This document shows, one piece after another, positions 545 through 57,178 of a stretch of DNA of 64,000 nt (position 1 is its first letter; each line of letters begins with the position of its first letter). The stretch comes from Candidatus Wildermuthbacteria bacterium (GTDB lineage Bacteria; Patescibacteriota; Minisyncoccia; Minisyncoccales; UBA10102). The stretch covers positions 42,749 to 106,748 of the forward strand of contig JACOZJ010000003.1 of assembly GCA_016181405.1 (NCBI GenBank), in the 5' to 3' direction. The position numbers were made by a program, and so were the translations under genes. The notes beneath the pieces were generated by a model. The model worked only from the letters and a program-made list of their open reading frames with translations. It was not told the DNA's origin and searched no databases.

Positions 545-866
545 AGCTGTACAAGCAGGTAGAGCTGCGAGGGAAGGGCTTGAGAGGATTCTGCAAGGAG
601 TTCTGGTTGAGCCCTATCAAACTCGAAGGAGAGACCATGACTGGACCTCCGCGATTGAGAGCACGCGATCGAACAGCCTGGCGAGCATCCCCGACGGCAA
701 CGGCGCCCCTCGTTGCGCGCCCCGCTCCAGCGCCACCGACACGGCGGCCATCTGACCACGAGCCGGGTCAGGGCCCACTAGGTGCTGAAGCAGTAGGGGA
801 GTCTGGCATATGCCCGGCTCCCCTGCAACTCTACTCGCAGCCAACGAAGGCTGTTTTTTGTTTTTG
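545..866 (+). ncRNA. GC-rich structured RNA or leader upstream of alaS; identity unresolved (weak SRP-RNA-like GGUCAGG...GAAGCAG element)
   Basis: Three overlapping ORFs in different frames have Arg/Pro/Ala-rich junk translations. Strong helices are present (gagccggg/cccggctc; 564-571 with 834-841). The region ends in a stem plus T-run terminator. Confidence 0.35.
837..866 (+). terminator. Intrinsic terminator: cagcc-aacgaa-ggctg followed by TTTTTTGTTTTT
   Basis: Hairpin plus U-tract read directly from the sequence. Its 5' arm overlaps the 3' strand of the long-range helix 564-571:834-841. Confidence 0.6.
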
Positions 867-2939: not shown

Positions 2940-2985
2940 GTCTCCATATAGCTTCTATACGGCATTTGTTGTAGAATAAACAAAT

Positions 2986-6197: not shown

Positions 6198-6647
6198 ATG
6201 GGGAAGAAACGTATTATAAAAAAGGGGGAGGAGGGAGCAGGAGAGCGGAAGCAGGCAGGAGATGTCGAAACAAGTACGGCGCGAGTTAGTGCCGCCAAAC
6301 GAGTACCCGAAGGGCGGGTATATGTGTATTCCTCATACAACAATACATTAATGTCGCTTTGCGATGCGAAGGGAAACGTATTGGCGCAGGTATCGGCGGG
6401 CGCCATTGGCTTTAAGGGGACGAAAAAATCCACTCCATTTGCCGCCGCGAAAGTTGCGGATGCTGTGTCCCAGATTGCAAGAAACAAGGGTATGGAAAGA
6501 GTTGATATTTTAATTAAAGGGGTGGGTTCAGGGAGAGATTCTGCCTTACGGGCATTGGGTTCAAAAGGATTTGAAATAACTTCGATTCAGGATCTTACGC
6601 CGGTCCCGCATAACGGGCCTCGGCTAAGAAAAGTAAGACGAGTATAA
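6198..6647 (+). CDS. rpsK: 30S ribosomal protein S11
   Basis: ...GRVYVYSSYNNTLMSLCDAKGNVL...TPVPHNGPRLRKVRRV. Confidence 0.95.
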   Translation: MGKKRIIKKGEEGAGERKQAGDVETSTARVSAAKRVPEGRVYVYSSYNNTLMSLCDAKGNVLAQVSAGAIGFKGTKKSTPFAAAKVADAVSQIARNKGMERVDILIKGVGSGRDSALRALGSKGFEITSIQDLTPVPHNGPRLRKVRRV

Positions 6648-44287: not shown

Positions 44288-46086
44288 ATACGTATGTGAG
44301 TTTTTTGAACAAACGCTTCAAGTTTCATTGCACCAAGGTCACCCTTGCCGCGTTCGCGCACGCTTATTTCATGGTTACTCATTTCTTTTTCTCCAACTAT
44401 GAGTGAATAGGGTATTTTCATTGTTTCACCTTCCCGAATTCGTTTGCCCAGCGTTTCGTTTTCGCCGTTCATGCGAATACGAAAATCTTTATCTGCGGCC
44501 AGAAGTTTTTGCTGAACCTCTTGCGCGTAGCCCGCAAATTTATCCGATACCGGTAAAATCCAAATCTGTTCGGGCGCTAGCCAAAAAGGAAAGGCACCAG
44601 CGTAGTGTTCAATCAAAAACGCAATAAACCGCTCGTGGGAACCAAGAGGAGCTCGATGTATAACATACAAAGGTTTTTCTGAGCCATCCTTATCGCGATA
44701 CGTGAGATTAAACCGTTCTGTCGCAAGAAAATCAAGCTGGTTAGTGGAAGCTGTCTCTTCGCGGCCAATAACGCTTTTAATTTGGAAATCAACTTTCGGC
44801 CCATAGAACGCGGCTTCACCTTCAGCTTCCTGGTAGGGGAGTCCTGATTTTTTCATCGCGCTTCTGATAATTTCAACAGCCTCTTTCCACGCTTTTGGAA
44901 CCCCGGCATACTTTTTCTTGTCTTTTGCCGGCAGCGAAAGCCGCATATAAAAATTTTCAATTCCAAATACTTTTTTGTACCAAAATTCGTGTAGCTGCAT
45001 TACTTTAAGGAACTCTTCTTCTGCCTGTTCTTTGGTGCAATAGATGTGGGCATCGTTTTGCGTAAATCCGCGCACACGCAAAAGCCCAGCTAGGGTGCCG
45101 GAAAGTTCATACCGATATACAGTGCCAAATTCCGCGTAGCGCAATGGCAGTTCACGATAACTATGAGGTTCTGCCCTGTAAATCATATGAGTATGCGGGC
45201 AATTCATGGCCTTCAAATAGTATTTGCCGTCGTCCAATTCCATCGGAGGATACATACTATCTGCATAGTAGGGGATATGCCCAGACATTTTATACAGGGC
45301 TTCCTTCGCGATATGGGGAGTGGTAACGCGCTGATACCCCCATTCTCGCTCTATTTGTTTTGCGCATTTCTCAATTTCTTCGCGGATAATCGTCCCATTT
45401 GGCAGCCAAAGAGGCAATCCAGGCCCAACTTCTGGGGCGAATGTAAATAGCTTGAGTTTTTCTCCAAGCACGCGATGATCCCGTTTTTTTGCTTCTTCTT
45501 GCCGCCAAAGGTAATCATCGAGTTCCTTCTTAGTGGCAAAAGCCGCCCCATACACGCGGGTAAGCATAGGATTTTTTTCATCACCTCGCCAGTAAGCTCC
45601 AGCAACGCTTGTAAGCTTGAAAGCATCAAGCGGCAATTCGCGCGTATTTTTTACGTGCCCGCCGCGGCACAAATCCAAAAACACGTCGCCGGTATATACC
45701 ATACCTACCTTCAAAAATTTTGGATTTTGGATTTTGGATTTTGAGCTTTGCGCTTTGGATTTTACGAGATCTCGGATGAGCTCGAGCTTATACGGCTGTT
45801 TCAGTTTCTTGTAGTGCAACGTTGCCTTAGGCGCTGGCCACAGTTCCCTTTTGAAAGCCAAGTTTTGTTTTGCGATAAAGCGCATTTCTTCTTCGATTTT
45901 GGCCAAATCCGCCTCGGTAATTTTGAGTTTTCCGAAATCATAATAAAACCCGTTTTCAATCACGGGCCCAATTCCCAATTCCACCTTGGGATAGAGCTTT
46001 TTCACGGCCGCCGCGAGCACATGCGCGAACGAGTGCCGCATATTTTCTATAGCTTCTCTGGAACTTTTCGAAGGAATGTCTGCCAT
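44281..46086 (-). CDS. thrS: Threonyl-tRNA synthetase (no N-terminal TGS domain)
   Basis: ...HSFAHVLAAAVKKLYP...CRGGHV...HRAPLGSHERFIAFLIEH...; ATG at 46086. Confidence 0.93.
   Translation of the reverse strand: MADIPSKSSREAIENMRHSFAHVLAAAVKKLYPKVELGIGPVIENGFYYDFGKLKITEADLAKIEEEMRFIAKQNLAFKRELWPAPKATLHYKKLKQPYKLELIRDLVKSKAQSSKSKIQNPKFLKVGMVYTGDVFLDLCRGGHVKNTRELPLDAFKLTSVAGAYWRGDEKNPMLTRVYGAAFATKKELDDYLWRQEEAKKRDHRVLGEKLKLFTFAPEVGPGLPLWLPNGTIIREEIEKCAKQIEREWGYQRVTTPHIAKEALYKMSGHIPYYADSMYPPMELDDGKYYLKAMNCPHTHMIYRAEPHSYRELPLRYAEFGTVYRYELSGTLAGLLRVRGFTQNDAHIYCTKEQAEEEFLKVMQLHEFWYKKVFGIENFYMRLSLPAKDKKKYAGVPKAWKEAVEIIRSAMKKSGLPYQEAEGEAAFYGPKVDFQIKSVIGREETASTNQLDFLATERFNLTYRDKDGSEKPLYVIHRAPLGSHERFIAFLIEHYAGAFPFWLAPEQIWILPVSDKFAGYAQEVQQKLLAADKDFRIRMNGENETLGKRIREGETMKIPYSLIVGEKEMSNHEISVRERGKGDLGAMKLEAFVQKTHIRIW
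45718..45764. repeat. Short repeat family B inside thrS (tttggattttggattttggattttgagctttgcgctttggatttt); encodes KSKAQSSKSKIQNPK on the minus strand
   Basis: 29 of 31 nt match 50671-50700. Includes a TTTTGGA x3 tandem. Confidence 0.75.
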
Positions 46087-46260
46087 AGCCAATTGACTAG
46101 TTATACCACAAAACAAAAACCCCCTCAACAGGGAAGTACCCCAAGCGCTTAAGCCACGGAAAAGTTTGACTTTTTATCGGTAGCGTGTTAGTGTATCGCC
46201 AGCACTTGCTGGTGGGAAAACCCTTAAATTGTATAGCCAGCAAGAAGGAAGGTGGTTCCG

Positions 46261-46545
46261 ATGTCAAAGAAATTCCTGGTAATCTTGGCGCTCGTAGCCG
46301 TCCTGGCGGCCGTATTGGTTCTTCCAGGACAGGGAGCCGACGCACGGCAGAAGCGTTCGGCCTTCCAGGTGACCTCGGTAGGGATACAGCGCTCTGACAC
46401 GGGCACATGGCTAGAGAGCCACGTTGATCTGAATGTGCTGTCCATCCGGATACGGCCGGCCGCAAACCAGGATGGAGTCGCGGTCACTATCGTAGACACG
46501 TCGGGAAACGTCGTCTACGACGGAACGCCAGGCACCAAGAACTAG
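46261..46545 (+). CDS. Hypothetical small secreted protein (94 aa)
   Basis: AGGAAGGTGG SD; MSKKFLVILALVAVLAAVLVLPGQGA is a signal-like N-terminus. Confidence 0.65.
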   Translation: MSKKFLVILALVAVLAAVLVLPGQGADARQKRSAFQVTSVGIQRSDTGTWLESHVDLNVLSIRIRPAANQDGVAVTIVDTSGNVVYDGTPGTKN

Positions 46546-46584
46546 CTCCAGCGCCCTGTAGTAGAAGCACCTAATACCCAGAAA

Positions 46585-46829
46585 CGGGCAGGGCAGGCGA
46601 CGAGAAGTCCAAACCTTCTTTCGCCTGCTCACTCTCATTGAGTGCATCAAGGAATTGGTGGATTCAACAGGAGTTCCAGTACTTTTAAATACACATCCGC
46701 CGCTTCATAGCGGCGAAACGGACATTACCGCAGAAACGCTTAAAACAATTGATTGAAAGAAGTGAAAACGAGTAGTAGTGTTCGTCTCGCCGCTATGGAG
46801 CAGGCAATCTCTCTAAGGAGAAGACATCT
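46585..46829 (+). promoter_or_regulatory. Structured intergenic RNA module, copy 1
   Basis: Stem-loop 46585-46628. Local GCCGC-TTCATA-GCGGC hairpin. CATAGCGGCGA (46706-16) is complementary to TCGCCGCTATG (46787-97). Homologous to the copies at 54346 and 55091. Confidence 0.6.
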
Positions 46830-46871
46830 ATGGAGAACAAATTTGTGGATTTTTATAGAAACAAAACCTGA
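46830..46871 (+). CDS. Possible 13-aa micro-ORF (MENKFVDFYRNKT) downstream of module copy 1
   Basis: AAGGAG SD 8 nt upstream. The stop lies inside the terminator stem. It may not be translated. Confidence 0.25.
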   Translation: MENKFVDFYRNKT

Positions 46872-46893
46872 CAGTTGCTGTCAGGTTTTGTTT
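46863..46893. terminator. Bidirectional terminator aaaacctgacag-ttg-ctgtcaggtttt shared with dnaE
   Basis: Perfect 12-bp stem flanked by A-run and T-run. Confidence 0.75.
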
Positions 46894-49595
46894 TAGGAGG
46901 CTACGATTTCCTCGACTTCTTCGGCGAGGAATTTTTTTTCGCCGTCGCGGCTATCGAGACGACCAGTTACAAACACCATTTTATTTTCTTGCAGAGCGGT
47001 CGGATAGCGCTCGATAACCGAAGGAAACACCACAACCTCGATACGATCGGTTAAATCCTCCAAGGCAACAAAAAGCATGGGTTTGCCACTTTTGGTAATA
47101 ATTCTTTTCACCGAAGAAATAATACCTCCAATGCGCAAGCGCTCGCGTTGCCGGCTAAACTGAAACTTGTATCGCGTATTTTGAATCTCCTGCACCGCCT
47201 CTTGCAGCGAACGGATCGCCAGCGCCCTACTTTCCAAAATGTTTTTGATCGCTTTCAAAGGATGAGAAGTTACATATAATCCCAGCAATTCCTTTTCCCA
47301 TAGCAAAAGCTCTGACTCTTTTGCGGGTTCTGTAGCTTCCAGCACGAGTGAAGAGTGATTCTGTTCTGCCGGCTGGCTGTCGAACAAGCCTTTTTGCCCG
47401 TTGGCTTTTGTTTTCTGATTTTCACGCGCAACGGTAAGCAATCGCTCCATGTTTTTTAGGAGCTGGTTACGCTCGCCGAACTGATCGAATACGCCGGCTT
47501 TTACCATGCTTTCCATCGATTTCTTGTTCAAATCTTTTGTTGCCACGCGGGTCACAAAATTTTGAATCGCCAGATAAGGGCCATCTGCCTTACGTTCTTG
47601 AATAATAGACGCCACAATCCCTTCGCCCACGTTTTTGATGGCCAATAGCCCAAAGCGAATCTGATTTTTTGCCGGCACGGCAGAAAAAAAGGCGAAGCTC
47701 TCGTTTACGTCGGGAGGCAACACTTCAATACCCATTTTTCGCGTTTCCTCAATCAAGAACGCGATGCGTTCAACATCGTTGCGTTCCGAAGTTAGAAGAG
47801 CAGACATATATTCCAAAGGATAGTTCGCTTTAAGCCACGCGGTTTGGTAGGCGATGGTGGCGTAGCACGCCGCATGGCTCCTATTGAAACCATAGCTCGC
47901 GAAAGGCTCAATAAAATCAAAAACACTCTCCGCGATTTTCTTTGAAGTTCCAGCTGCGACTGCTCTCTCCACAAATTTTACTTTTTGCTCCTCTAAGAGC
48001 GTCTTTATTTTTTTCCCAATGGCCTTGCGGAGAATGTCTGCCTCTCCATAGGAAAATCCGGCGAGTTCACGCGCTATCTGCAGAATTTGTTCCTGGTACA
48101 CGGCAATCCCATACGTATTGCGTAAAATGGGTTCTAGTTTTGGATGCAAATACCGAATTTCTTTTTCTCCATGCTTGCGGGCAATATAGTCGGGTATAAG
48201 TTCCATCGGACCTGGCCGATAGAGCGCAACCATGGCAATAATGTCTTCAAACTCGGTTGGCTTCAATTCTTTTAAGTATCTTCTCATCCCGCCGCTTTCC
48301 AGTTGGAACACCCCGGTTGTATCGCCCGCCTGCAAAAGCTTGTACACTTTTGGATCATTCAAAGGGATAGTATCGATATCAATATTTTTGCCGCGAATGG
48401 CGTATATGCGCTTGAGTGTTTCTTCAATAATGCTCAAGTTTTTCAGCCCCAAAAAATCCATTTTTAAAAGGCCGATGTCTTCCACGCTGTGCATTTCGTA
48501 TTGGGTAACTATCGCCTCATCGTTTTGCGTGGGGTGCTGCAAAGGCACGCGCGTATCCAAGGGTTCTGCCGCAATCACCACCCCGCAAGCGTGCGTGGAA
48601 GCGTGCCGCGCGACACCCTCGAGCTTTTTGCCCAAATCAATTAAACGTTTGGCTTTTTCATCTTCCTCGTATAGAGCTTTGAATTCATCCACTTGCTCCA
48701 ATGCTTCCTCGAGCGAAGAACCAAAGGGAATCAGTTTTGCCGCGCGGTCACAGTATCCATACTCATATTCGAGCGCGCGCCCTACATCGCGTATCACGGC
48801 GCGCGAGGCCATTGTTCCAAATGTAATAATTTGCGCCACGCGATCCCGCCCGTATTTTTGAGCCACGTATTCTATAACTTCGTCGCGCCTTGTGTCTGCA
48901 AAATCCAAATCAATGTCCGGCAGAGAAACGCGTTCTGGATTCAAAAATCGCTCGAACAAAAGTTTATAGCGAATAGGATCAACGTTTGTAATCTTGAGCA
49001 AGTACGCCGCGATAGATCCAGCGGCAGATCCGCGGCCCGGCCCCACCACAATGCGGTTTTGCTTTGCCCAGTTCACAAAATCCTGCACAATTAAGAAGTA
49101 GGCGGCAAATCCGGTTTGGAGAATCACGTCGAGCTCATATTCCAGCCGTTTTACAGCATCTCCCGAATCGGTGTATTGCGGCTTTTCCTTCAACCCCTCG
49201 TAGCAAAGTTCGCGGAGATATGCGTCGGCAGTTTTCCCTTCAGGAAGAGGAAATTTGGGCAAAAGATTTTTCCCAAGTACAAGCTCCAGATTGCAGGCTT
49301 CGGCTATGACTTGCGTATTTGTTAAAGCTTCTGGAACATCTTTGAAAAGCTCTGCCATTTCTTCTGCGCTTTTTAACGAGAAATCATCATGCTTGAGCGT
49401 CAGGCGTTCCTCATCGCTATTCTTCGCCCCGGTATTAATAAGCATTAAAATATCCTGTGCTTCTGCGTCATCTTTTCGCAGATAGTGCGAATCGGCGGTT
49501 GCCACCAACGGAATACCAGTACGCTTGGAAATTGCAATCAATTCTTTGTTTACTGTTTCTTGTTCTTTGATATTCGGATGATTCTGCAGCTCCAA
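46893..49595 (-). CDS. dnaE: DNA polymerase III alpha subunit, main body (from ...YLELQNHP onward)
   Basis: ...ELQNHPNIKEQETVNKELIAISKRTGIPLVATADSHYL...PGPMELIPDY... In this frame the homology extends upstream to IFGKGNYY, but the only in-frame start is a TTG. Confidence 0.85.
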   Translation of the reverse strand: MELQNHPNIKEQETVNKELIAISKRTGIPLVATADSHYLRKDDAEAQDILMLINTGAKNSDEERLTLKHDDFSLKSAEEMAELFKDVPEALTNTQVIAEACNLELVLGKNLLPKFPLPEGKTADAYLRELCYEGLKEKPQYTDSGDAVKRLEYELDVILQTGFAAYFLIVQDFVNWAKQNRIVVGPGRGSAAGSIAAYLLKITNVDPIRYKLLFERFLNPERVSLPDIDLDFADTRRDEVIEYVAQKYGRDRVAQIITFGTMASRAVIRDVGRALEYEYGYCDRAAKLIPFGSSLEEALEQVDEFKALYEEDEKAKRLIDLGKKLEGVARHASTHACGVVIAAEPLDTRVPLQHPTQNDEAIVTQYEMHSVEDIGLLKMDFLGLKNLSIIEETLKRIYAIRGKNIDIDTIPLNDPKVYKLLQAGDTTGVFQLESGGMRRYLKELKPTEFEDIIAMVALYRPGPMELIPDYIARKHGEKEIRYLHPKLEPILRNTYGIAVYQEQILQIARELAGFSYGEADILRKAIGKKIKTLLEEQKVKFVERAVAAGTSKKIAESVFDFIEPFASYGFNRSHAACYATIAYQTAWLKANYPLEYMSALLTSERNDVERIAFLIEETRKMGIEVLPPDVNESFAFFSAVPAKNQIRFGLLAIKNVGEGIVASIIQERKADGPYLAIQNFVTRVATKDLNKKSMESMVKAGVFDQFGERNQLLKNMERLLTVARENQKTKANGQKGLFDSQPAEQNHSSLVLEATEPAKESELLLWEKELLGLYVTSHPLKAIKNILESRALAIRSLQEAVQEIQNTRYKFQFSRQRERLRIGGIISSVKRIITKSGKPMLFVALEDLTDRIEVVVFPSVIERYPTALQENKMVFVTGRLDSRDGEKKFLAEEVEEIVAS

Positions 49596-49972
49596 ATAAT
49601 AATTCCCTTTGCCGAATATATGTAATAGAAACCGTCCAGGTGGGCGCGAGTTAAGAGTTTTACGATATTTTGATATCCCTTTTCGTTTTTAGCTAGAAGA
49701 ATCAAATGGTAAATTGTGTCGTCCACGCCTGGACGCTTGTCTGCCATACTTTCAAACGCCAAATAAATTTCGCATCCCAAAATAGGTTTAATGCCTTTTG
49801 CTTTCGCTTTTTTGTAGAACTCCACCGCGCCATAGAGGTTGCCGTGATCGGTTAGAGCCACCGAGTTCATGGTAAGCTCCTGCACCCTATCCAAAAGCTG
49901 GTCTATTTTCGGCAGACCATCGAGAAGCGAGTAGTGAGAATGGACGTGTAAGTGAGTAAAGCTTTGCCCCAT
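49550..49972 (-). pseudogene. dnaE: dnaE N-terminal PHP-domain fragment in a different frame (frameshift plus internal deletion relative to intact DnaE)
   Basis: MGQSFTHLHVHSHYSLLDG...LLAKNEKGYQNIVKLLTRAHLDGFYY, then out-of-frame junk. It overlaps the main ORF by 46 nt. Confidence 0.7.
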
Positions 49973-50011
49973 AGGTATGTATAATTCTATCTCGTTTGGT
50001 ACAATATCTCA

Positions 50012-50614
50012 ATGCAGAAAATTATCGTTGGCATAGATGAAGCTGGTCGAGGCCCTCTTGCGGGCCCGGTGGTGGCAGCAGCGTTTTGCGTGGTGGGAAA
50101 ACCGAAATTTCGGGCGATAGGGGATTTCGACTCCAAAAAACTCACACCCCAATGGCGGGAAGATTTATATCAAGTTTTTACCTCTCATCCGCAAATAGAA
50201 TGGGGGATAGGGCAAGTTTCAGAAAAACAAATAGACAAGATAAACATTCTCCAGGCAACCCGCCTTGCCATGAAAAAGGCGTTTTACGGGTTGTTTCGAA
50301 AACTGCAAAACAAGGGAGTAACACCAAATCTTCTCATTGTGGATGGAACATCTCTTCTTGATATTCCCATATCCCAAAAAGCGATTCCGAAGGCAGATGC
50401 CACGATATTTCCATGTATGGCGGCTTCCATTATTGCCAAAGTTACCCGCGACCGCCTTATGCTCAAACTTCACGAAAGATATCCTGTCTATGGCTTTGAT
50501 CGTCATAAAGGATATGGAACCAAATTTCATCTACAAGCGCTGGCGCGATTTGGACCCTGTACAATCCATAGAAAAAGCTTTTCACCAATCTCCGATGTCT
50601 TAAAATCCAAATGA
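50012..50614 (+). CDS. rnhB: Ribonuclease HII
   Basis: ...VGIDEAGRGPLAGPVVAAA...DSKKLT... Confidence 0.92.
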   Translation: MQKIIVGIDEAGRGPLAGPVVAAAFCVVGKPKFRAIGDFDSKKLTPQWREDLYQVFTSHPQIEWGIGQVSEKQIDKINILQATRLAMKKAFYGLFRKLQNKGVTPNLLIVDGTSLLDIPISQKAIPKADATIFPCMAASIIAKVTRDRLMLKLHERYPVYGFDRHKGYGTKFHLQALARFGPCTIHRKSFSPISDVLKSK

Positions 50615-50700
50615 CAAAATCCAAATTCCAAAATAAATTACAAATACAAATATATAAATTCAAAACCTGTTTTGGATTTTGAGCTTTGAGTTTTGGATTT
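50602..50700. repeat. Repeat family B, intergenic imperfect inverted pair (aaaatccaaa...aaatccaaa / tttggattttgagctttgagttttggattt) around an AT-rich core
   Basis: Read directly from the sequence. The left arm overlaps the rnhB stop codon. Confidence 0.7.
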
Positions 50701-50743
50701 ACACTCTTGCAGAAAATACTCTTTTCTGCTAGAGTAGGGCATT

Positions 50744-51037
50744 ATGGCGGTTCCAAAACAACATCGGTCAAAATCGAGGCAAGGGCAGCGAAGAATGCAT
50801 TTGTTCATCAAGAACCTTAAACTGGTCGCCTGCAAAAAGTGCGGAAAACCAGTTTTGCCGCATACGCTTTGCGAAAACTGCGGAACCTACCGGAGCAAAA
50901 CATTCCTCGACGTCCTTGCGAAACTCACCAAAAAAGAACGGAAGCAGAAACAAAAAGAATTGGCGGCGCAGGAGGAGCATCCGCCAGCTGGCGGACAGTC
51001 GAAGGATTTAAGCGCAGAAGAGTTATCTAAGCGGTAA
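50744..51037 (+). CDS. rpmF: 50S ribosomal protein L32 with a Lys/Glu-rich C-terminal extension
   Basis: MAVPKQHRSKSRQGQRRMH...CKKCGKPVLPHTLCENCG... Confidence 0.9.
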   Translation: MAVPKQHRSKSRQGQRRMHLFIKNLKLVACKKCGKPVLPHTLCENCGTYRSKTFLDVLAKLTKKERKQKQKELAAQEEHPPAGGQSKDLSAEELSKR

Positions 51038-51040
51038 ACC

Positions 51041-51517
51041 ATGGCTAGCCGGCACCTTGCGCGTTCCATAGCAATGCAGTCCTTGTACGAATGGGACTTT
51101 TACGGCAAGCAAAAGGAATTGGCAGAAACGGTAGAACGCAATATCAAAGAGTTTGGTCCGGGACTGGAAGAAGGAAATAAGGACTTCGTGCGGCGGCTCG
51201 CCTTAGGCGTACGTGAAAATCTGCAGTCGCTCAACGCCATTATTGAAAAGGCGGCGCCCGAATGGCCGCTGGATCAAATAACTCTTGTAGACCGTAACGT
51301 ATTGCGCCTTGGCCTTTATGAACTTATCTACGGCAACAAAGAAGAAGTGCCGCCCAAGGTGGCAATTAACGAAGCAATCGAACTCGCGAAAAACTTTAGC
51401 GGCGAGTCCGCGGGCAAATTCGTCAACGGAGTGCTAGGCACCGTATTTCGCGAATTAGAAGCAACGCAATCCACCGAAAGCCCAAGGGGCATTCAGGCGG
51501 ACCCGCCTCAATCCTGA
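51041..51517 (+). CDS. nusB: Transcription antitermination factor NusB
   Basis: ...[17 protein letters not shown]...[12 protein letters not shown]...[10 protein letters not shown]... Confidence 0.88.
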
Positions 51518-51543
51518 GGTTTGGGCGGGCAACAACCACAATT

Positions 51544-52233
51544 ATGAGTTTATCATCACTCGAAAAGGCACTCGACATTTCATTCAAAAATAAAGACTTA
51601 CTCCAGCAAGCATTCGTTCACCGTTCGTATCTCAACGAAAATCGAGACTTCCATCTTCAACACAATGAAAGGCTCGAGTTTCTGGGAGATGCGGTGCTCG
51701 AACTGGTTGTTACCGAATATCTCTACTCAAAGTACCCCGATAAGCCGGAAGGTGAACTTACTGCCTGGCGCGCCGCGCTGGTAAACACCAAAATGCTTTC
51801 TTCCATTGGCAGGGAACTGAACTTTAGCGATTACTTACTGCTCTCGCACGGAGAGTCAAAAGAAGAAGGCAAGGCAAGAGACTATATTCTGGCAAACACG
51901 GTAGAAGCATTCATTGGTGCCTTATTCCTTGACCAGGGCTTGAAAAACTCCGGAAAGTTTATTACAACATATATACTGTCCAAACTTAAAGAAGTGCTGG
52001 AGGACGAACTATTTTTAGACTCAAAATCCCACTTCCAAGAATTAGCGCAGGAAAAAGCGGCCATTACCCCCACGTACATCGTATTAAAGGAATGGGGGCC
52101 TGACCACGCGAAGCATTTTTACATCGGCGTATATCTGGATAAAGAACTGGTGGCACACGGAGAGGGCTCTTCCAAGCAGGAAGCAGAACAAAACGCAGCC
52201 AAAAATGCCCTCGCGGAGAAAAACTGGAAATAG
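51544..52233 (+). CDS. rnc: Ribonuclease III
   Basis: ...NERLEFLGDAVLELVVTEYLY... plus a C-terminal dsRBD (KSHFQELAQ...). Confidence 0.93.
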   Translation: MSLSSLEKALDISFKNKDLLQQAFVHRSYLNENRDFHLQHNERLEFLGDAVLELVVTEYLYSKYPDKPEGELTAWRAALVNTKMLSSIGRELNFSDYLLLSHGESKEEGKARDYILANTVEAFIGALFLDQGLKNSGKFITTYILSKLKEVLEDELFLDSKSHFQELAQEKAAITPTYIVLKEWGPDHAKHFYIGVYLDKELVAHGEGSSKQEAEQNAAKNALAEKNWK

Positions 52234-52241
52234 TAAATATT

Positions 52242-52706
52242 ATGTTAACAATTCGTTTATTTCGCGTAGGAAGGAAAAATCAGCCGGCGTTTAAGATTGT
52301 CGTCTGCAATAAGCAAAACGCCGCTTCAAGGGGACGCTTCGTGGAGGAAGTGGGTTTTTACGATCCCTTAACTAAACAGCGCAACCTAAAAGGGGATAGG
52401 GTAAAATACTGGTTATCCGTAGGCGCAAAAGCTTCTCCCACGGTTCACAATATGCTTGTGACAGATAAAGTGGTGGAAGGCTCCAAAATCGCCAAACACA
52501 AACTCTCCAAGAAGCCTGCCTCGCCAGCAGGGGAGTCTGTAGCGTCTGAAACAAACCAAAGCGGGAAGTCAGCCGATACGGCCCCGGAAGCACCAAAAGC
52601 CCAGGAATCAGCTCCACAAAGCGCTCCTGCTCAAGAAACCACCCCTGAAGCGCCAAAACCCGCTGAAGAGCCTAAGCCTGCCGAAACGCAGGAAAAACAG
52701 CCTTAA
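52242..52706 (+). CDS. rpsP: 30S ribosomal protein S16 with a Pro/Ala/Glu-rich C-terminal extension
   Basis: MLTIRLFRVGRKNQPAFKIVVCNKQNAASRGRFVEEVGFYDP... Confidence 0.93.
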   Translation: MLTIRLFRVGRKNQPAFKIVVCNKQNAASRGRFVEEVGFYDPLTKQRNLKGDRVKYWLSVGAKASPTVHNMLVTDKVVEGSKIAKHKLSKKPASPAGESVASETNQSGKSADTAPEAPKAQESAPQSAPAQETTPEAPKPAEEPKPAETQEKQP

Positions 52707-52770
52707 AGCTCAAACTCCTCAATTCTTGTCCCGCCGTAGCTTTAAGCCAAGGCGGATAGCCTTATACACT

Positions 52771-52795
52771 CCCACCAACCCTTTGGTGGGTTCTT
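52771..52795 (+). terminator. rpsP terminator cccacca-accctt-tggtggg plus TTCTT
   Basis: 7-bp GC stem followed by a short T-run. Confidence 0.5.
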
Positions 52796-52822
52796 GACAT
52801 TTTTGGGGAAGTATGCTATACT
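52794..52822 (+). promoter_or_regulatory. Consensus promoter TTGACA-N17-TATACT
   Basis: Perfect -35 element, 5 of 6 in the -10 element, 17-nt spacer. Confidence 0.65.
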
Positions 52823-53164
52823 GTGGCTAACAATAAAATACTGGTTTTGCGGGTGGAAGGAGAGAGCCACCGGCAAATAATAAAGACACAGACGATTGCA
52901 CATATCACAATTACCCAATCAGCTCTCCCCAAAAGGAGAGTTGGTTGTTTAGAGAATGTCCTGCCTCTGCGAATATAAAGATACTCCCGGAGGTAGCACA
53001 TTCAAAACATCACAGCACCTTAACCATCAAGCAAGGGGGAAGAGGAACAGAAAATTCTTCCCCCATACCCTTCAGCCCACCACGAGTATCGAATGGCGAA
53101 TTGAAGGGTAACGATAGCACCCAAAAATTTCCTTCCTGTAAAGGGAAGGGGAAAGGAGAGAGCC

Positions 53165-53275
53165 ATGGTGCACCGACCTCCACGCCCGGAGACGGTGATG
53201 ACGCTTCCGCTGCCGCGTTGCGGCTGCGGGGCACGCATCGCCCCGGGTGGCTACTGTACTGGAAAGTGCAAGTAG
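53165..53275 (+). CDS. Cys-rich micro-protein (36 aa: MVHRPPRPETVMTLPLPRCGCGARIAPGGYCTGKCK)
   Basis: Translated by hand. GGAAAGGAGAGAG SD 3 nt upstream. CxC...CxxxC pattern. Confidence 0.45.
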   Translation: MVHRPPRPETVMTLPLPRCGCGARIAPGGYCTGKCK

Positions 53276-53283
53276 CCCTCAAC

Positions 53284-53388
53284 GGAGTCGGAGGAAAAGC
53301 ACTCATTGATTGCACTCATAGCATACTCTCCGACTCCTTAAGTTTAAGACCGTTGCGAAAAGCGCAGATCATAGATTTAAGGAGTCGG
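53284..53388 (+). promoter_or_regulatory. Three-segment alternative-hairpin element (1:2 versus 2:3)
   Basis: ggagtcggag (53284-93) pairs with ctccgactcc (53328-37). ccgactccttaa (53330-41) pairs with ttaaggagtcgg (53377-88). The two pairings are mutually exclusive. Confidence 0.5.
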
Positions 53389-53420
53389 ATAGATTGCGCA
53401 CCTTATGAAAGGAGGACGCC

Positions 53421-53606
53421 ATGGAAAGGCTCAATCAATCCCAAATCCGGGCCGCCCATTGGAAGATTGGAGTGAGGGGACCCGTAAACGGGTTACTCAC
53501 TCCAAGGAAACTCGCCCGGGTTTACGGAGTTAGTCCGAGCGAGACAAGAATCATCGTGTTGTCGGTATTCGTGTACCGCGCGCGGGAATGGCTTTGCCCC
53601 CGATGA
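53421..53606 (+). CDS. Small putative helix-turn-helix protein (61 aa)
   Basis: AAAGGAGG SD; ...LTPRKLARVYGVSPSETRIIV... looks like an HTH. Confidence 0.5.
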   Translation: MERLNQSQIRAAHWKIGVRGPVNGLLTPRKLARVYGVSPSETRIIVLSVFVYRAREWLCPR

Positions 53607-53872
53607 GAGCGTGCACAATCCCAGCAACCAAGCCCTGGCCCTGCGAGATCTACCAAGATTTCGCAGGGCACCCCAACTGAATCCCGAATTCATTTCGAGA
53701 TTCAACAGGGGTTAGTACATAAAAATCCATTCGTCTTCAGCGATTTGGCCAAGGCACTTGACTGAATCGTTGGAGACGAGAAGTATGGTGAGATGCGATT
53801 CGTCGAAGACCTCTTCTTGAGTGTCGAAGAACGACAAAGAAAACTCACGAAGAGTGCCAAGAAAGGCAGAAA

Positions 53873-54307
53873 ATGTCTATGTCTATACCGACGATGCTGG
53901 CGGGGCTGGCGGGGCTGGTGGTAGCGGGGATGCTGGTGGGGATGCTGATCTCCATCATCGTATGGACGGATCGGCGCCCGTCGTTCAAGACCGTGTTTGG
54001 TTTCAAGCCTCAGAACCGCAAGAGGCCTTGGTCGTCAGCGCTTCGTGCAGCGGAACAGAAAAAGGTGGCTACTGTGCTGAGTCGGTTAGCACAGACCTTT
54101 GCCACGTGCGACAAGACCGAGAGGGAGATGAAGATTGAACTCCCTGCGGATGGGGAGTTCGAGAAATGGCATACGGAACAGCGTAAACGCCTCGCGGATT
54201 TGAGGCGGGAGCTGAAAACCGCGAAGGAAGGTTTCTGGCGGGCCTATGCGCTCGCCGAGAAACAGGAATTCAGTGTACAGCGGAAGTACACTGACTACCT
54301 CCCCTAG
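53873..54307 (+). CDS. Hypothetical membrane-anchored protein (N-terminal TM helix, charged coiled C-terminus)
   Basis: MSMSIPTMLAGLAGLVVAGMLVGMLISIIVW... Preferred over the overlapping 53821-54138 frame. Confidence 0.55.
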   Translation: MSMSIPTMLAGLAGLVVAGMLVGMLISIIVWTDRRPSFKTVFGFKPQNRKRPWSSALRAAEQKKVATVLSRLAQTFATCDKTEREMKIELPADGEFEKWHTEQRKRLADLRRELKTAKEGFWRAYALAEKQEFSVQRKYTDYLP

Positions 54308-54345
54308 CGCGACCACTAAGTAGAAGGATGCGTCTCACCACGCAT

Positions 54346-54578
54346 TCTGGGCGGGAGAACAAAGGTTCAATCCCTTTCTCTCCCGCCCCCATACTTGAGC
54401 TCATGAATAAGTTCGTGGGCTGAAGAGTGGATAGCACTTTCAAAACTACAGCCGCTTCATAGCGGCGAAATGCCCTTCCGTAGCTTTATGCGAAGGAGGA
54501 CAGCTCGCTGCTATGGAAAGCGGCCTTCCGTAAACCCTCACCCTCAGCAAAAGGAGAGGTAGGAAGAGGAGAACAAGA
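54346..54578 (+). promoter_or_regulatory. Structured intergenic RNA module, copy 2
   Basis: Stem-loop 54346-54389 with a TTCAATC loop followed by CCA. GATAGCACTTTCAAAAC box. CATAGCGGCGA (54458-68) pairs with TCGCTGCTATG (54505-15). Confidence 0.6.
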
Positions 54579-54962
54579 ATGACCATGAAATCTTTCGCGG
54601 CATTGGACTGGACGTTTTCAGGCCCGGCGCGCCGGGTTACTCTCGAGTTCCCGTGCGAGACCCCTGAGGAGGCGCGGGTCCTCCTGCGGGCGGAGCATGA
54701 GGCCCGCAAGGACAAGGCATTGGAGGAAATCAAGGCCCATCCCCGCATGAAGCAGATTGGATGGGCAGGGGATCACGTCACTCCGGTAATGGGGCCCGTG
54801 CCCCCTTGGGAGGATTCCCGGTACCCAGGGTCCCTCTGCGTCGGCATCCCCAACGTGGATGCCGAGGTCGGGGTCCAAGTCGGATCCGGGATGGGAGAGA
54901 CGGACCGGATATACCGCATTGAGGCGGTGCCGGGGGGCGGCACGCGCGCCGTGCGTGTCTGA
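54579..54962 (+). CDS. Hypothetical protein (127 aa)
   Basis: GGAAGAGGAG SD; no recognisable motif. Confidence 0.55.
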   Translation: MTMKSFAALDWTFSGPARRVTLEFPCETPEEARVLLRAEHEARKDKALEEIKAHPRMKQIGWAGDHVTPVMGPVPPWEDSRYPGSLCVGIPNVDAEVGVQVGSGMGETDRIYRIEAVPGGGTRAVRV

Positions 54963-55090
54963 CGCAAGAGAAGACCAGGCTGGGGGTGAAGCCGGCCAAA
55001 AAGAATAGTTTCCCAGTATCATGAAACTGGGGGCGCTGACCACGGCGCCATACAGCAGTGGGAGGTCGTTCTGCCCGAGGCGGAAGGACC

Positions 55091-55366
55091 TAAGGCGAGA
55101 GAGGAAGGTTAATCCCTTTCTCTCCCGCCCCATACTTGAGCTCATGAATAAATTCGTGGGCTGAAGAGTGGATAGCACTTTCAAAACCACAGCTGCTTCA
55201 TAGCGGCGAAATGAACATTTCCGTCTCATCGACGGATATGCCGACGAGGCATAAACCAGAAACGCTCAAGATGCATGAAAGAAATGATTTGGAGTGGAAA
55301 ACAGAGTTAGTGTTCAGCTCGCTGCTATAAAGTGGCAAATCTTGAGCCTGAGAGCAGGAGGAGAAC
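55091..55366 (+). promoter_or_regulatory. Structured intergenic RNA module, copy 3
   Basis: The first ~120 nt are about 95% identical to copy 2. ATAGCGGCGA (55200-09) pairs with TCGCTGCTAT (55319-28). The insert shares blocks with copy 1. Confidence 0.6.
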
Positions 55367-55561
55367 ATGAAAAAAAACGCCTTGTCGACGATCTTCCTAG
55401 TCGGTTTTTCCCTCGTGGGCGCTTTCGGGGGCGCCCTCGGAGGGGTCAGTGTCAGCGCTCTCATTGGTATTAACCCAAACACTGCCGCCCTATGGGGCGG
55501 TATCGTCGGTGCCATCGCTATGACGGCGGTGGCGGTCCTCAGCATCAATAGGTGGAAATAA
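55367..55561 (+). CDS. Glycine-zipper small hydrophobic protein (64 aa)
   Basis: GGAGGAG SD; ...LVGAFGGALGGVSVSALIG...LWGGIVGAIAMTAVAVL... Confidence 0.65.
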   Translation: MKKNALSTIFLVGFSLVGAFGGALGGVSVSALIGINPNTAALWGGIVGAIAMTAVAVLSINRWK

Positions 55562-55591
55562 AACGCAAGGAGATAACCTTTCGTGCAATAA

Positions 55592-55640
55592 GGTAGGGAG
55601 GCGAACGGTTCTATTCCGCTTCCTCCCTACCACTTTCTTG
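55592..55640 (+). terminator. Stem-loop ggtagggagg..cgg-ttctatt-ccg..cctccctacc, same architecture as the module stem-loops
   Basis: 10-bp stem, internal loop, 3 bp and a 7-nt loop, followed by ACTTTCTT. Confidence 0.5.
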
Positions 55641-55731
55641 CGTACAGCTGTGATCTACTCTCTCCTCCGCCTCACCGGCGGATCCATCATAGCTGTACAC
55701 AAGAGAGAAATACTTTTCCACTTCTCAAATA

Positions 55732-55759
55732 TTGACAGGATGGCACGCAGTGCTAGACT
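55732..55759 (+). promoter_or_regulatory. Promoter TTGACA-N16-TAGACT (TG immediately upstream of the -10 region)
   Basis: Read directly from the sequence. The track ORF 55732-55935 begins at the TTG of this -35 box. Confidence 0.55.
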
Positions 55760-55944
55760 ATCCTAATTTCACAGCATGCACCCTCGAACGTGATGCGGAA
55801 ATGGGGGATGGATTGGCAAGGAGTATTGATTCTTTGGCAATCCCGTCCCTGTTTCGTACCACAATTCAGCGGCAGGGAGGAGAGGAGGTACAACTTGAAA
55901 GTCTAAAATACAAATCAACGCGTTCTTTTTCATAAACGAGGAGG

Positions 55945-56097
55945 ATGACGATGCAATCGAATAGAGGGAGAATCCGGGGATGCCTGGGTCAGACCTATGC
56001 CTCTCCGATTCAGCCGAAGCGCTTTCGGCCGCAGCGCCCCCGCGCGTCGCATCGCCGGAAGCCCATCGTCAAGATCATCCTGATCTCCAACACGTAA
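55945..56097 (+). CDS. Highly basic 50-aa protein (MTMQSNRGRIRGCLGQTYASPIQPKRFRPQRPRASHRRKPIVKIILISNT)
   Basis: Translated by hand. GAGGAGG SD. An 11-bp stem hairpin follows at 56121-56157. Confidence 0.45.
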   Translation: MTMQSNRGRIRGCLGQTYASPIQPKRFRPQRPRASHRRKPIVKIILISNT

Positions 56098-56172
56098 CCT
56101 CGTTGGCGCCCGATAACCCCAACAACCCCTCGGATTGTGGTACATCCGAGGGGTTCATCATTTGTGTGGGGG

Positions 56173-56200
56173 TTGACACTATTTTTTGATCGTGTATACT
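56173..56200 (+). promoter_or_regulatory. Consensus promoter TTGACA-N16-TATACT
   Basis: Read directly from the sequence. Confidence 0.6.
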
Positions 56201-56206
56201 CAATCG

Positions 56207-56342
56207 TACATAAATATGAACTCACGCTATCTTTTCTGCATGTGTCTTTGTGCCAGCCCAGAGAAGAGTCTGCGTGTTTCGCGTTAAGACATTTTGTTAT
56301 TTGAAACCAGCCAGCCTCTTCTCTTCAGGGGCTGGTTTTTTG
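56207..56342 (+). ncRNA. Candidate ~135-nt sRNA bracketed by a consensus promoter and a strong terminator (contains an SD-less 23-codon ORF)
   Basis: Promoter at 56173-56200. Terminator aaccagcc...ggctggtt plus TTTTT at 56305-56342. Confidence 0.4.
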
Positions 56343-56419
56343 TAGCTTGGCAGAGACTCAAAACCCATTGTGCGTCTCTGCCAGGAAACAATCCTGGAAT
56401 ACAGAAAGGAGAAAGGGAA

Positions 56420-56740
56420 ATGGCCAGAATAATAGGAGTGTTTGAAGGCCCAACTTCCCTACAGGAAGTCTTCGGCAGAAACGTGCCGAACAGAAGGTCT
56501 TTTGAATCGTACGAAGACCTTCTCAAAGCCCTCAAGGAGGGGCTGCTTGACGGCATCGTCATACCGGAGAATCTCGTCAGCAGAACTTTCGTGGCAGCGC
56601 AAATGGGGTTGATACAGTGCGTGCGTGGATTCGCGTATATCAAGCCGTCGCTCGAGATACGGGTCCGCCGCGCGCGAAGCCGCATGCACGAACGCCGCGC
56701 TTGGCGAGAGTATACGCCGCCCCGGCGCCTTCCCTGTTAA
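56420..56740 (+). CDS. Hypothetical 106-aa protein resembling the N-terminal part of a prephenate-dehydratase or periplasmic-binding-protein type-2 fold (fragment?)
   Basis: AAAGGAGAAAGGG SD; MARIIGVFEGPTSLQEVF...SFESYEDLLKALKEGLLDGIVIPENLVS... Confidence 0.45.
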   Translation: MARIIGVFEGPTSLQEVFGRNVPNRRSFESYEDLLKALKEGLLDGIVIPENLVSRTFVAAQMGLIQCVRGFAYIKPSLEIRVRRARSRMHERRAWREYTPPRRLPC

Positions 56741-56759
56741 CCTGCACCTTACAACGTAG

Positions 56760-56792
56760 AAGCCCCGCCTTTATGGCAGGGGCTTTCTTTTT
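56760..56792 (+). terminator. Intrinsic terminator aagccccgcc-tttat-ggcaggggctt plus TTCTTTTT
   Basis: GC stem with one bulged A, followed by a T-run. Confidence 0.65.
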
Positions 56793-56796
56793 GGGG

Positions 56797-56825
56797 TTGA
56801 CAAACCCGAGAGACAGAAATAACAT
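56797..56825 (+). promoter_or_regulatory. Promoter TTGACA-N17-TAACAT upstream of khpA
   Basis: Read directly from the sequence. Confidence 0.5.
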
Positions 56826-56869
56826 AAAGAAAAGTCGAATAGCAGAAAGTTACAGAATTCAGAATTCAA

Positions 56870-57178
56870 ATGGCAGAAGAGACACCTCAGTACCAAGCAT
56901 TGCTCGAGTATATCGTGAAATCCTTGGTGGACAATCCGAACGACGTAACGGTAGAACGCAAAGTAGATGAAATGGGCGTACTGCTTTCTTTGAAAGTGCA
57001 CGCTCAAGACATGGGTCAAATAGTCGGCCGACAGGGTTCTACCGCGCGAGCAATTCGCACATTGGTTCGCATCGCGGGCCTCAAAGCTCACGCACGGGTA
57101 AACCTCAAGATTGAAGAGCCAGAAGGCGGCCGCGGCCCCCGAAAGAGCGAAGAACCTCTTGCGGGGTTGAACATCTAA
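56870..57178 (+). CDS. khpA: KH-domain RNA-binding protein (KhpA/YlqC, UPF0109)
   Basis: ...LLEYIVKSLVDNPNDVTVERKVDEMGVLLSLKVHAQDMGQIVGRQGSTARAIRTLV... Confidence 0.88.
   Translation: MAEETPQYQALLEYIVKSLVDNPNDVTVERKVDEMGVLLSLKVHAQDMGQIVGRQGSTARAIRTLVRIAGLKAHARVNLKIEEPEGGRGPRKSEEPLAGLNI

Follow-up and report, generated by a model that had tools for sequence, protein, structure and literature searches.

Stem-loops that lie between cistrons and set differential mRNA stability or permit processing into translatable units are known from REP/BIME sequences and the plastid intercistronic expression element, and REPs themselves are ~35-nt palindromes, present by the hundred and associated with RAYT transposases. 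Processing of the T7 type by RNase III leaves products that retain protective terminal hairpins. Comparable inverted-repeat hairpins, co-transcribed with genes, are the ERIC elements of enterobacteria and the Correia repeat enclosed elements (CREE, or NEMIS) of Neisseria, which are inserted in either orientation. CREE are ~70-160-nt inverted repeats that often lie 5′ of the genes with which they are co-transcribed, form hairpins that are bound or cleaved by RNase III, and are dispersed in ~100-250 copies, typically at TA target sites (PMC2649163). The idealised RNase III substrate has 22 bp, and internal loops confine cleavage to one strand (PMC3867540). Here we describe a structured RNA module in a 64 kb stretch of DNA (the window, whose positions are used for all copies; L-numbers denote related loci or contigs) from a groundwater candidate-phylum bacterium, a member of a subclade of Candidatus Wildermuthbacteria. 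In the window, two RNA motifs that have covariation support and no counterpart in Rfam punctuate an array of orphan small membrane- and secreted-protein genes within the rnc-rpsP-khpA-trmD operon. Hardly any regulatory RNA has been characterised in candidate-phyla-radiation bacteria, whose genomes are tiny. By analogy, the closest described systems would be T7-type RNase III sites and RNase III-bound Correia elements, and structured intercistronic or untranslated-region (UTR) RNA repeats are already known as a kind; what is unusual here is the composite architecture, the covariation in a candidate-phylum lineage and the confinement to an orphan-cassette array inside a conserved operon.

An earlier note on this DNA had reported three plus-strand copies of the module, and all three were found where it had placed them, far beyond chance. 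The 20-mer core GCYGCTTCATAGCGGCGAAA occurs on the plus strand at 46699, 54451 and 55192 against a chance expectation of 0.01, with a near-complement at 46785-46804, and a second motif, box iii (GATAGCACTTTCAAAAC), has exact matches in copies 2 and 3, at 54430 and 55171. Copy 1 lies between thrS and dnaE. Copies 2 and 3 lie 741 nt apart in a hypervariable array of small open reading frames (ORFs) between rpsP and khpA, and share 97% identity across 86 nt (repeat family D1). Whole-copy minimum free energies (MFE) of -106.2, -102.7 and -114.6 kcal/mol for copies 1, 2 and 3 correspond to z-scores of -9.0, -6.6 and -7.9 against shuffled sequences. The stem that opens each copy (P1) folds as had been claimed in all three, with arms that differ yet stay complementary. 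The proposed long-range pairs, CATAGCGGCGA at 46706, 54458 and 55199 with TCGCYGCTAT at 46787, 54505 and 55319, likewise form in the MFE folds, but the helix had been understated: its 11-bp core extends to ~18 bp, and it is no isolated helix but the base of a rod, in which a 2x2 loop and then another conserved stem follow. In copies 1 and 3 the segment previously described as a variable insert proved to be a structured domain that is conserved, and in copy 2 a short hairpin takes its place.

Each half of the module also occurs without the other; the whole is therefore a composite of two separable units, A (the 5′ half) and B (the 3′ half). Unit A, located 3′ of the stop codon of the upstream ORF, comprises P1, a hairpin of free sequence, an adjacent hairpin of conserved shape (P2) and the single-stranded, A/U-rich box iii. 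It folds alike in 16-18 instances with unrelated P1 sequences. The conserved element that the earlier note had listed after the first stem proved to be the 5′ strand of P2, a hairpin that had been overlooked. Unit B is a rod of ~100 nt whose basal stem, P3, is the former "long-range helix" (11-bp core, 11-18 bp in total). From base to tip, P3 is followed by a 2x2 AA/YC loop, P3b (9-12 bp; TGRACATTA / TTAGTGTYCA with an invariant U.G pair), a purine-rich internal loop (CCAGAAA / AGAAACAAAG), the 5-bp P4 and a variable tip; P3, the conserved 2x2 loop and P3b together span about two helical turns. The positions of all features in the window are collected in Table 1.

Homologues were sought by two routes. 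A scan of species-representative genomes and metagenome contigs with the 20-mer core returned L002, a syntenic Candidatus Wildermuthbacteria genome ~90% identical to the window, plus two short contigs with more copies (L013 and L015); among species genomes the core was present at one locus in one related species. This core retrieves only the subfamily that carries a local hairpin, GCYGC-TTCATA-GCGGC (hairpin iv), and other lineages were reached via the neighbours of KH-protein homologues, with the KH protein at 56870-57178 as query; contigs encoding close homologues gave the array context. Unit B lineages were then found by profile search, followed by a covariance model (R1, cmsearch). This search of relatives yielded further homologues, so that Unit B is now represented in seven lineages (the window; L002; L013/L015/L029-34; L019/L020; L023; L039; L043-L052) and at three different genomic sites, with exactly three copies within the window. 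It was not detected by cmsearch in L016-18, L150-158 or L160-163. A further metagenomic contig from Logan, L159, is an independent assembly of the window region that breaks inside module copy 3. The break would fit one induced by repeats, an effect that may leave the modules under-represented in short-read metagenome-assembled genomes.

The claim that the module matches no known RNA class was upheld. With Rfam 15 at gathering score, the whole window yielded tRNAs only, and at E<=10 nothing credible was found over 46100-46950 and 52700-56900, where the best overlaps were noise matches to microRNA models (15-19 bits). A full-text literature search found no account of such an element in these bacteria. 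A viral origin was rejected: in IMG/VR the 20-mer core was absent and two 16-mer patterns matched at chance level only, and cmsearch across 97 loci gave no real match. A likeness to loop B of the hairpin ribozyme (CCAGAGAAACA) was discarded, as Rfam gave no hairpin match and nothing has the geometry of loop A.

Compensatory base changes occur in both units. For Unit B, a structure-blind MAFFT alignment of 12 distinct sequences was compared with 500 shuffles and with slid controls. In this alignment 95% of cells are paired and seven pairs carry changes on both sides; none of the 500 shuffles reached the observed paired cells, double-change counts or covariation score, and the slid controls were 28-44% paired. 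The count of further pair types did not exceed that in the 500 shuffles. RNAalifold independently returned the same helices P3, P3b and P4, with nine covarying pairs. Among the compensatory changes, P3 occurs as CATAGCGGCGA/TCGCYGCTATG versus CCGGAGCGGCGA/TCGCCGCTCCGG and as CAUAG.../...CUAUG versus CCGGAG.../...CUCCGG, one P3b position is variously A-U, G.U and G-C, and P4 occurs as CGCUC/GGAGUG, CACUC/GGAGUG, CAUUC/GGAAUG and CGCUU/AAGUG. The lineages are few and related, so that these counts are not phylogenetically independent and the covariation numbers overstate independence.

These results also bear on whether the copies are simply a recent local duplication without function. The proximity and 97% identity of copies 2 and 3 would suit such an origin, but diverged homologues with compensatory changes in at least seven lineages and at three genomic sites do not, nor does the retention of copy 1 with L002 although both flanks have been replaced. 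Functionless duplication is very improbable and already contradicted by these comparative data.

The signal has a direction. The MFE is lower on the plus than on the minus strand for 16/16 Unit B copies (by 1.9 to 18.4 kcal/mol; -54.2 versus -41.9 kcal/mol for the copy 1 rod and -60.6 versus -45.9 kcal/mol for that of copy 3), cmsearch scores are 2-3 times higher on the plus strand, and all Unit B copies are co-oriented with the neighbouring array ORFs. A minus-strand small RNA (sRNA) ending at hairpin iv and a T-run was considered and rejected, as the plus strand folds better in all 16 copies and G.U pairs would turn into A.C. The covariation tests on Unit B and on the base of P2 bear out the proposal of a recurrent, plus-strand, RNA-type element: the two structured elements are new, lineage-restricted and selected on the plus strand.

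The P2 base was tested on eight sequences (alignment A5), in which the variable tips were swapped for GAAA, an artificial step that permitted alignment. In this set 96% of cells are paired with five double-change pairs; the paired fraction and covariation score were reached by none of 500 shuffles and the double-change count by two. Most P2 hairpins contain a conserved G.G mismatch between UU and AA (5′-UUGAR / YUGAA-3′; for example 54389-54430, 55130-55171, L044, L023 and L152), and the copy 1 subtype of P2 has a G-C pair at that place. Beyond the three modules, the window contains at least two more copies of Unit A (P1, P2 and box iii), one at ~53035-53130, followed by a small hairpin and then the Shine-Dalgarno sequence (SD) and ATG of a 36-codon ORF, and one at 53638-53730. 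The P1 of the latter is 93% identical to that of L032, where Unit B comes next; in the window the adjacent rod hairpin (53731-53779) gave no cmsearch match as a Unit B homologue. Unit A alone is also present in L023, in L044 spacers 1 and 5, in L151 (three copies) and in L152, where it lies 3′ of an ORF that faces a convergent gene. In L151 and L044 spacer 1 it adjoins the SD directly.

Since ORFs can traverse this half of the module, its conservation might reflect a small protein gene or pseudogene in which ORFs starting near P1 end in ...PILEL(M/I)..., with the 5′ strand of P2 conserved as peptide. L015, L033 and L044 spacer 3 do have a good SD and ATG just 5′ of P1, their ORFs of 39-67 codons traverse P2, and ...PILELMNKFVG* is encoded in copies 2 and 3. 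However, a frameshift within P1 separates copies 2 and 3, that frame lacks a start codon in L044 spacer 4 and others, the copies differ in their frames through box iii and Unit B, and the variable positions covary with the opposite strand of P2, which together make a coding explanation scarcely credible. A promoter reading of the 5′ strand of P2 and of box iii was likewise rejected: in copies 2 and 3 TTGAG(C/T) lacks a usable -10 at a distance of 16-18 nt, box iii is -35-like in L044 spacer 2 only, and a promoter scan found no plus-strand promoter-like site inside any of the three modules. A pseudoknot between box iii and the apical loop (CUUUCA/UGAAAG) is available in the window's clade and not in L019, L023 and L043, and was rejected as not conserved.

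The earlier note had further proposed that hairpin iv and the long helix are mutually exclusive states of a riboswitch or attenuator that controls the downstream small ORF. This switch could not be sustained. Hairpin iv is confined to the clade nearest the window, where on its own it amounts to -7.7 to -13.8 kcal/mol; its 5′ arm is missing, with P3 kept, in four of the seven lineages (L019, L039, L023 and L043/L045/L047), and, compared with the rod, forcing it to form costs 15.9, 10.7 and 10.7 kcal/mol for copies 1, 2 and 3. Missing from most of the lineages and 11-16 kcal/mol costlier where present, hairpin iv gives the switch reading no support. In the MFE folds of the window copies its 5′ arm merely extends the rod outward, pairing with the GCGGC at the 3′ end or its equivalent, so hairpin iv may be at most a transient co-transcriptional intermediate. 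There are nevertheless features that a riboswitch would explain. Hairpin iv can form in the window's clade and competes with P3, and in L030 a G-to-A change strengthens it (U.G to U-A) yet breaks a P3 pair, favouring hairpin iv over P3. The modules lie in 5′ UTR-like positions, the conserved internal loop of the rod could bind a ligand, and no known Rfam class was matched. As in riboswitches, there is thus a covarying structured domain with a purine-rich internal loop able to bind something; unlike them, the module has no conserved alternative pairing or expression platform, no gene family and no Rfam match, and its interior is dispensable. The spacers between rod and SD are non-homologous (13-60 nt), there is no coherent downstream gene set, the same gene may be preceded by a full or a reduced allele of Unit B, and Unit B also stands alone. 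We consider a riboswitch improbable; the module looks like an mRNA junction or processing module instead.

The downstream genes themselves are unrelated orphans, and some copies have no downstream ORF, so that the proposed location upstream of small ORFs applies to most copies, usually 13-60 nt before an SD and ATG, but not to all. The 13-codon ORF that had been assigned to copy 1 is not conserved at the orthologous locus L002. The 127-codon ORF after copy 2 has no Pfam or PHROG hit and no homologue in 5.8e9 proteins, not even itself; for the 64-codon ORF after copy 3 the protein database holds only itself, and a Gly-zipper hit was sub-threshold. A linkage to gene families via homologues of the downstream ORFs was therefore abandoned, as none exist in protein searches. 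Gene callers probably skipped the 127-codon ORF or called an implausible 203-codon antisense ORF (54618-55229, minus strand) that overlaps copy 3.

The array that hosts copies 2 and 3 extends over ~52.7 to 56.9 kb (spacer 52707-56869, ~4.1 kb), with a G+C content above that of its surroundings and ordinary housekeeping genes on either side; rnc, encoding RNase III, lies ~0.5 kb upstream. In this subclade the array ORFs are small, same-strand and without Pfam hits, and form mosaic sets. A sigma-70-type promoter just past rpsP, with an equivalent in L044, is the likely start of a polycistronic array transcript that would include copies 2 and 3. No U-tract terminators were found over 53165-55561, and canonical hairpin and U-tract terminators do occur in the array, at 56124 and 56309. 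P1 and P2, which have no U-tract, were rejected as intrinsic terminators, and this lack, with canonical terminators present elsewhere in the array, indicates that the modules are intercistronic. They lie between co-directional small ORFs, 3′ of a strong promoter and with no U-tract terminators between, from which we infer that they are transcribed.

Our preferred reading, which we put forward tentatively, is that the module is an intercistronic junction for mRNA processing, stability or insulation, with the rod as a possible substrate of RNase III type. A duplex of ~20-22 bp with an internal loop, as expected for this enzyme, is present as P3/2x2/P3b in all copies, including the reduced ones. 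The layout of hairpins, an unpaired A/U-rich tail and a duplex of about two turns with a 2x2 loop matches processing and stability sites and so suggests that the elements act on mRNA. In the model, an endonuclease would cut the single-stranded tail, RNase III would cut the rod, or both, separating the cistrons. P1 and P2 would then guard the 3′ end of the upstream mRNA, and the rod would serve as a stable, self-contained 5′ structure that shields the downstream ribosome-binding site from the upstream cassette. The rod, excised or separately transcribed, could also persist as a small RNA. Like the T7-type hairpins (R1.1 and others), the modules repeat between co-directional cistrons and have a stem/loop/stem of about two turns; they differ from them in having no sequence similarity, in adding an apical domain (purine-rich loop and P4) and an upstream tandem-hairpin unit, and in occurring also as stand-alone, promoter-driven copies, and cleavage here is only predicted. 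Relative to REP/BIME sequences, the module is larger, composite and lineage-restricted.

Natural variants show which parts of Unit B can be lost. Among strains 98-99.9% identical across the array, one gene is preceded, at a single site, by a full Unit B in some and by a "mini" Unit B in others. This full Unit B matches a sister copy within the array at 100% identity, and the mini keeps P3, the 2x2 loop and P3b with a 5-nt loop in place of the interior. Copy 2 and L013A (L013 1-113) are minis of another kind, and L044 9218-9285 is also a mini. P3, the 2x2 loop and P3b are thus common to full and mini forms, and it is the long two-tier stem that is never lost; the apical domain, where it occurs, is conserved and covaries, yet it can be dispensed with in places.

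Between strains, homology repeatedly begins or ends exactly at unit edges. Copy 1 and its L002 counterpart are 91.6% identical with both flanks replaced; homology with L002 starts exactly at P1 of copy 1, which begins 46 nt past the stop codon of a 97-codon secreted-protein ORF, and the ORF upstream is unrelated. L032 and L030 (99% identical) become homologous at the 5′ edge of Unit B, and copy 2 and L013A are 97% identical and followed by different ORFs. The window array has little in common with its closest relatives beyond the modules and its right-hand end. Since the modules are the only sequences common to otherwise unrelated cassettes, they are homology anchors for cassette exchange, and recombination between them is a likely by-product of the arrangement.

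Such edges would also be expected if the repeat acted at the level of DNA, as a mobile element resembling MITEs (transposable elements of the miniature inverted-repeat type), CREE or ERIC, or as an attC-like site, with the RNA fold a by-product of inverted repeats. Unit B ends discretely at the base of P3, and two copies in the same array are 100% identical over 98 nt with different flanks. P3/P3b make up ~22-nt inverted termini and internal deletion or insertion accounts for length variants of ~70, 105 and 147 nt, as in the terminal repeats and length variants by which MITEs are recognised. CREE are similar in their RNase III hairpins and in their discrete length classes arising from internal deletions and insertions (PMC2649163). 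Unlike CREE or ERIC, the module copies in the DNA covered are few (three in 64 kb), confined to arrays and a few variable spots, and co-oriented, every copy having one orientation relative to the genes; no target-site duplication was seen at their flanks, and P4 covaries. Terminal repeats explain neither this covariation nor the preference of G.U pairs for the plus strand (16/16).

There is also a likeness to integron attC sites and to clusters of attC sites without an integrase (CALIN): the host arrays are mosaics of short, same-strand, mostly orphan ORFs in cassettes whose content varies among strains, and the elements are imperfect palindromes with conserved stems and centres of variable length. 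However, R''/R' (RYYYAAC/GTTRRRY) core sites are missing from the base of the stem (CATAGCGGCGA/TCGCYGCTATG or CCGGAGCGGCGA/TCGCCGCTCCGG), neither the large window ORFs tested nor the called genes flanking ~20 loci yielded an integrase, a transposase or a reverse transcriptase, and none of the viral contigs examined contained the element. Several cassette junctions have no Unit B, and the conserved G.U pairs and dedicated promoter point to an RNA role. An explanation primarily in terms of DNA is accordingly improbable.

Unit B without Unit A was found in L019 and L039, ~30 nt 3′ of an 11/12 TTGACA-17-TATACT promoter and upstream of rpmF. In L019 the TG-extended 11/12 promoter (6272-6300), Unit B (6331-6436) and, directly after it, an intrinsic terminator (6437-6459) form a complete transcription unit, and in both loci rpmF has an apparent promoter-like sequence of its own near the ATG, read by eye and below the scan threshold. 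These units raise the alternative that Unit B is a trans-acting sRNA of ~100-165 nt, stable and protein-binding, sponging or base-pairing, transcribed from its own promoter or excised, in which case the copies before ORFs would be co-transcribed paralogues. The terminator hairpin and the lack of a conserved ORF after copy 1 agree with this, as does the conservation of the internal loops (CCAGAAA / AGAAACAAAG) and of the covarying P4. On the other hand, most copies lie 13-60 nt before an SD and ATG within operons, minis without the conserved loops persist before ORFs, no target or partner protein can be named, and several relatives, sampled over 20 kb, have no copy. We regard a trans-acting sRNA as unlikely, while noting that the stand-alone unit of L019 and the conserved apical domain suit it better.

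The same units count among the points that weigh against an intercistronic processing junction. In L019 and L039 Unit B stands alone behind a promoter, and in L019, where the terminator adjoins it, there is no cistron to separate, so that a function in trans fits better. Copy 1 is in a 3′ UTR with no credible ORF downstream. A plain hairpin for RNase III or for stabilisation could do without a conserved, covarying apical domain (purine-rich loop and P4), whose presence hints at a more specific partner. The proposed processing step derives purely from geometry, the published determinants of RNase III may not be those of these bacteria, and the comparison draws on ~seven related lineages, with covariation counts that share their ancestry. 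A wider and more speculative proposal, to which we give rather little weight, is that candidate-phyla-radiation bacteria have an integrase-independent, integron-like cassette platform, in which portable junctions of Units A and B would supply every orphan small-protein cassette with post-transcriptional signals for expression and processing, serve as crossovers for swaps between strains and release Unit B as a stable sRNA with a specific partner.

If the processing and insulation junction is real, it would show how rapidly exchanged cassettes can be expressed independently of context, as a natural counterpart of synthetic "insulator" RNAs, and conserved RNA junctions would double as recombination anchors. 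Both the RNA and its candidate enzyme, the RNase III encoded next to the array, are defined and accessible to direct biochemistry.

Table 1. Positions of module elements and neighbouring features in the 64 kb window.
Feature	Position	Strand	Description and basis
Copy 1 P1 (Unit A)	46591..46630	+	10 bp, bulge and 6 bp, loop TCCAAAC; MFE and centroid fold
Copy 1 P2 (Unit A)	46631..46674	+	Three tiers ACUCU/GGAGU, UUGAGU/AUUCAA, CAUCAA/UUGGUG; folds
Copy 1 single-stranded tail	46675..46698	+	Diverged box iii CCAGTACTTTTAAATAC; unpaired in MFE and centroid folds
Copy 1 Unit B rod	46699..46806	+	P3, 2x2 loop, P3b, purine-rich internal loop, P4, tip; cmsearch 98.9 bits
Hairpin with T/A runs on both sides	46859..46895	undirected	Between copy 1 and convergent dnaE; conserved in L002
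rnc (RNase III)	51544..52233	+	Pfam Ribonucleas_3_3, Ribonuclease_3, dsrm; context, outside the module
Sigma-70-type promoter	52794..52822	+	TTGACA-17-TATACT, just past rpsP; 11/12 match
Extra Unit A	53035..53130	+	P1 GGGGGAAGA.../TTCTTCCCCC, then CCCCCATAC..., P2, box GATAGCACCCAAAAATTT; sequence and fold
Extra Unit A without Unit B	53638..53730	+	P1 53638-53669, P2 53670-53712, tail TTAGTACATAAAAATCC; folds
18-bp rod hairpin	53731..53779	+	Occupies the usual position of Unit B; fold
Copy 2 P1	54349..54388	+	Folds
Copy 2 P2	54389..54430	+	CCAU/GUGG, CUU/AAG with G.G mismatch, AGCUCAUGAA/UUCGUGGGCU; folds, P2-base covariation
Copy 2 box iii	54431..54450	+	ATAGCACTTTCAAAACTACA; unpaired in folds; exact motif match
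Copy 2 Unit B mini	54451..54524	+	P3 intact, interior a short hairpin; cmsearch 44.4 bits; repeat family D11
127-codon orphan ORF after copy 2	54579..54962	+	SD GGAAGAGGAG; ORF list
Copy 3 P1	55094..55129	+	Folds
Copy 3 P2	55130..55171	+	Folds
Copy 3 box iii	55172..55191	+	Single-stranded in folds; motif match
Copy 3 Unit B rod	55192..55338	+	39-nt two-hairpin insertion in internal loop; cmsearch 90.7 bits; alignment A2
64-codon glycine-rich, membrane-type orphan ORF after copy 3	55367..55561	+	ORF list

The hairpin at 46859..46895 is the likely 3′ end of a copy 1 transcript, judging from its sequence; in Rfam it gave only weak, noise-level matches resembling sRNA terminators. The dnaE gene that it faces is split (46893-49972, minus strand): a 900-codon ORF (46893-49595) has no PHP domain, which is found in an overlapping ORF (49550-49972). 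L002 carries ~143 extra nt at this junction, and the split stems either from a frameshift or deletion or from faulty assembly.

The spacer between rpsP and khpA is an insertion hot spot in this subclade (window, L016, L019, L023, L036, L044, L151 and L153). Its length ranges from 78 nt in L153, which has no array, through 0.6 kb in L016 and ~4.1 kb in the window, to ~10 kb in L023, whose array includes HicA, TrpR-like, AsnC-like and DAHP-synthase genes. Just past rpsP in the window, a hairpin at 52727-52760 resembles the interior of the copy 2 mini-rod (54471-54504) with 79% identity and compensatory arm changes (CCGCC/GGCGG versus CUUCC/GGAGG). At 53284-53395, before a 61-codon ORF, three arms (GGAGTCGGAG ... 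CTCCGACTCC ... GGAGTCGGAT) are so arranged that the middle one can pair with either flank, a further either/or arrangement in this array. A second conserved structured element lies at 55634-55712 and in L015 at 594-672 (minus strand), with 79% identity between the two; its long-range helix GTACAGCTGTGA...TCATAGCTGTAC encloses a GC hairpin, and in L015 it is located just 3′ of a TTGACA-17-TATAAT promoter. A compact conserved unit at 56173-56340, also present at L013 1797-1965, combines a promoter with an 11/12 match, a Cys-rich ORF of 23 codons (MNSRYLFCMCLCASPEKSLRVSR) and an intrinsic terminator, and would be either a small-peptide gene or an sRNA. Elsewhere in the window, the A/T-rich repeat TTTTGGATTTTGAGCTTTG occurs at 2979-3008, 45713-45762 and 50664-50700, and within 50590-50700 it is part of an inverted repeat between rnhB and rpmF.

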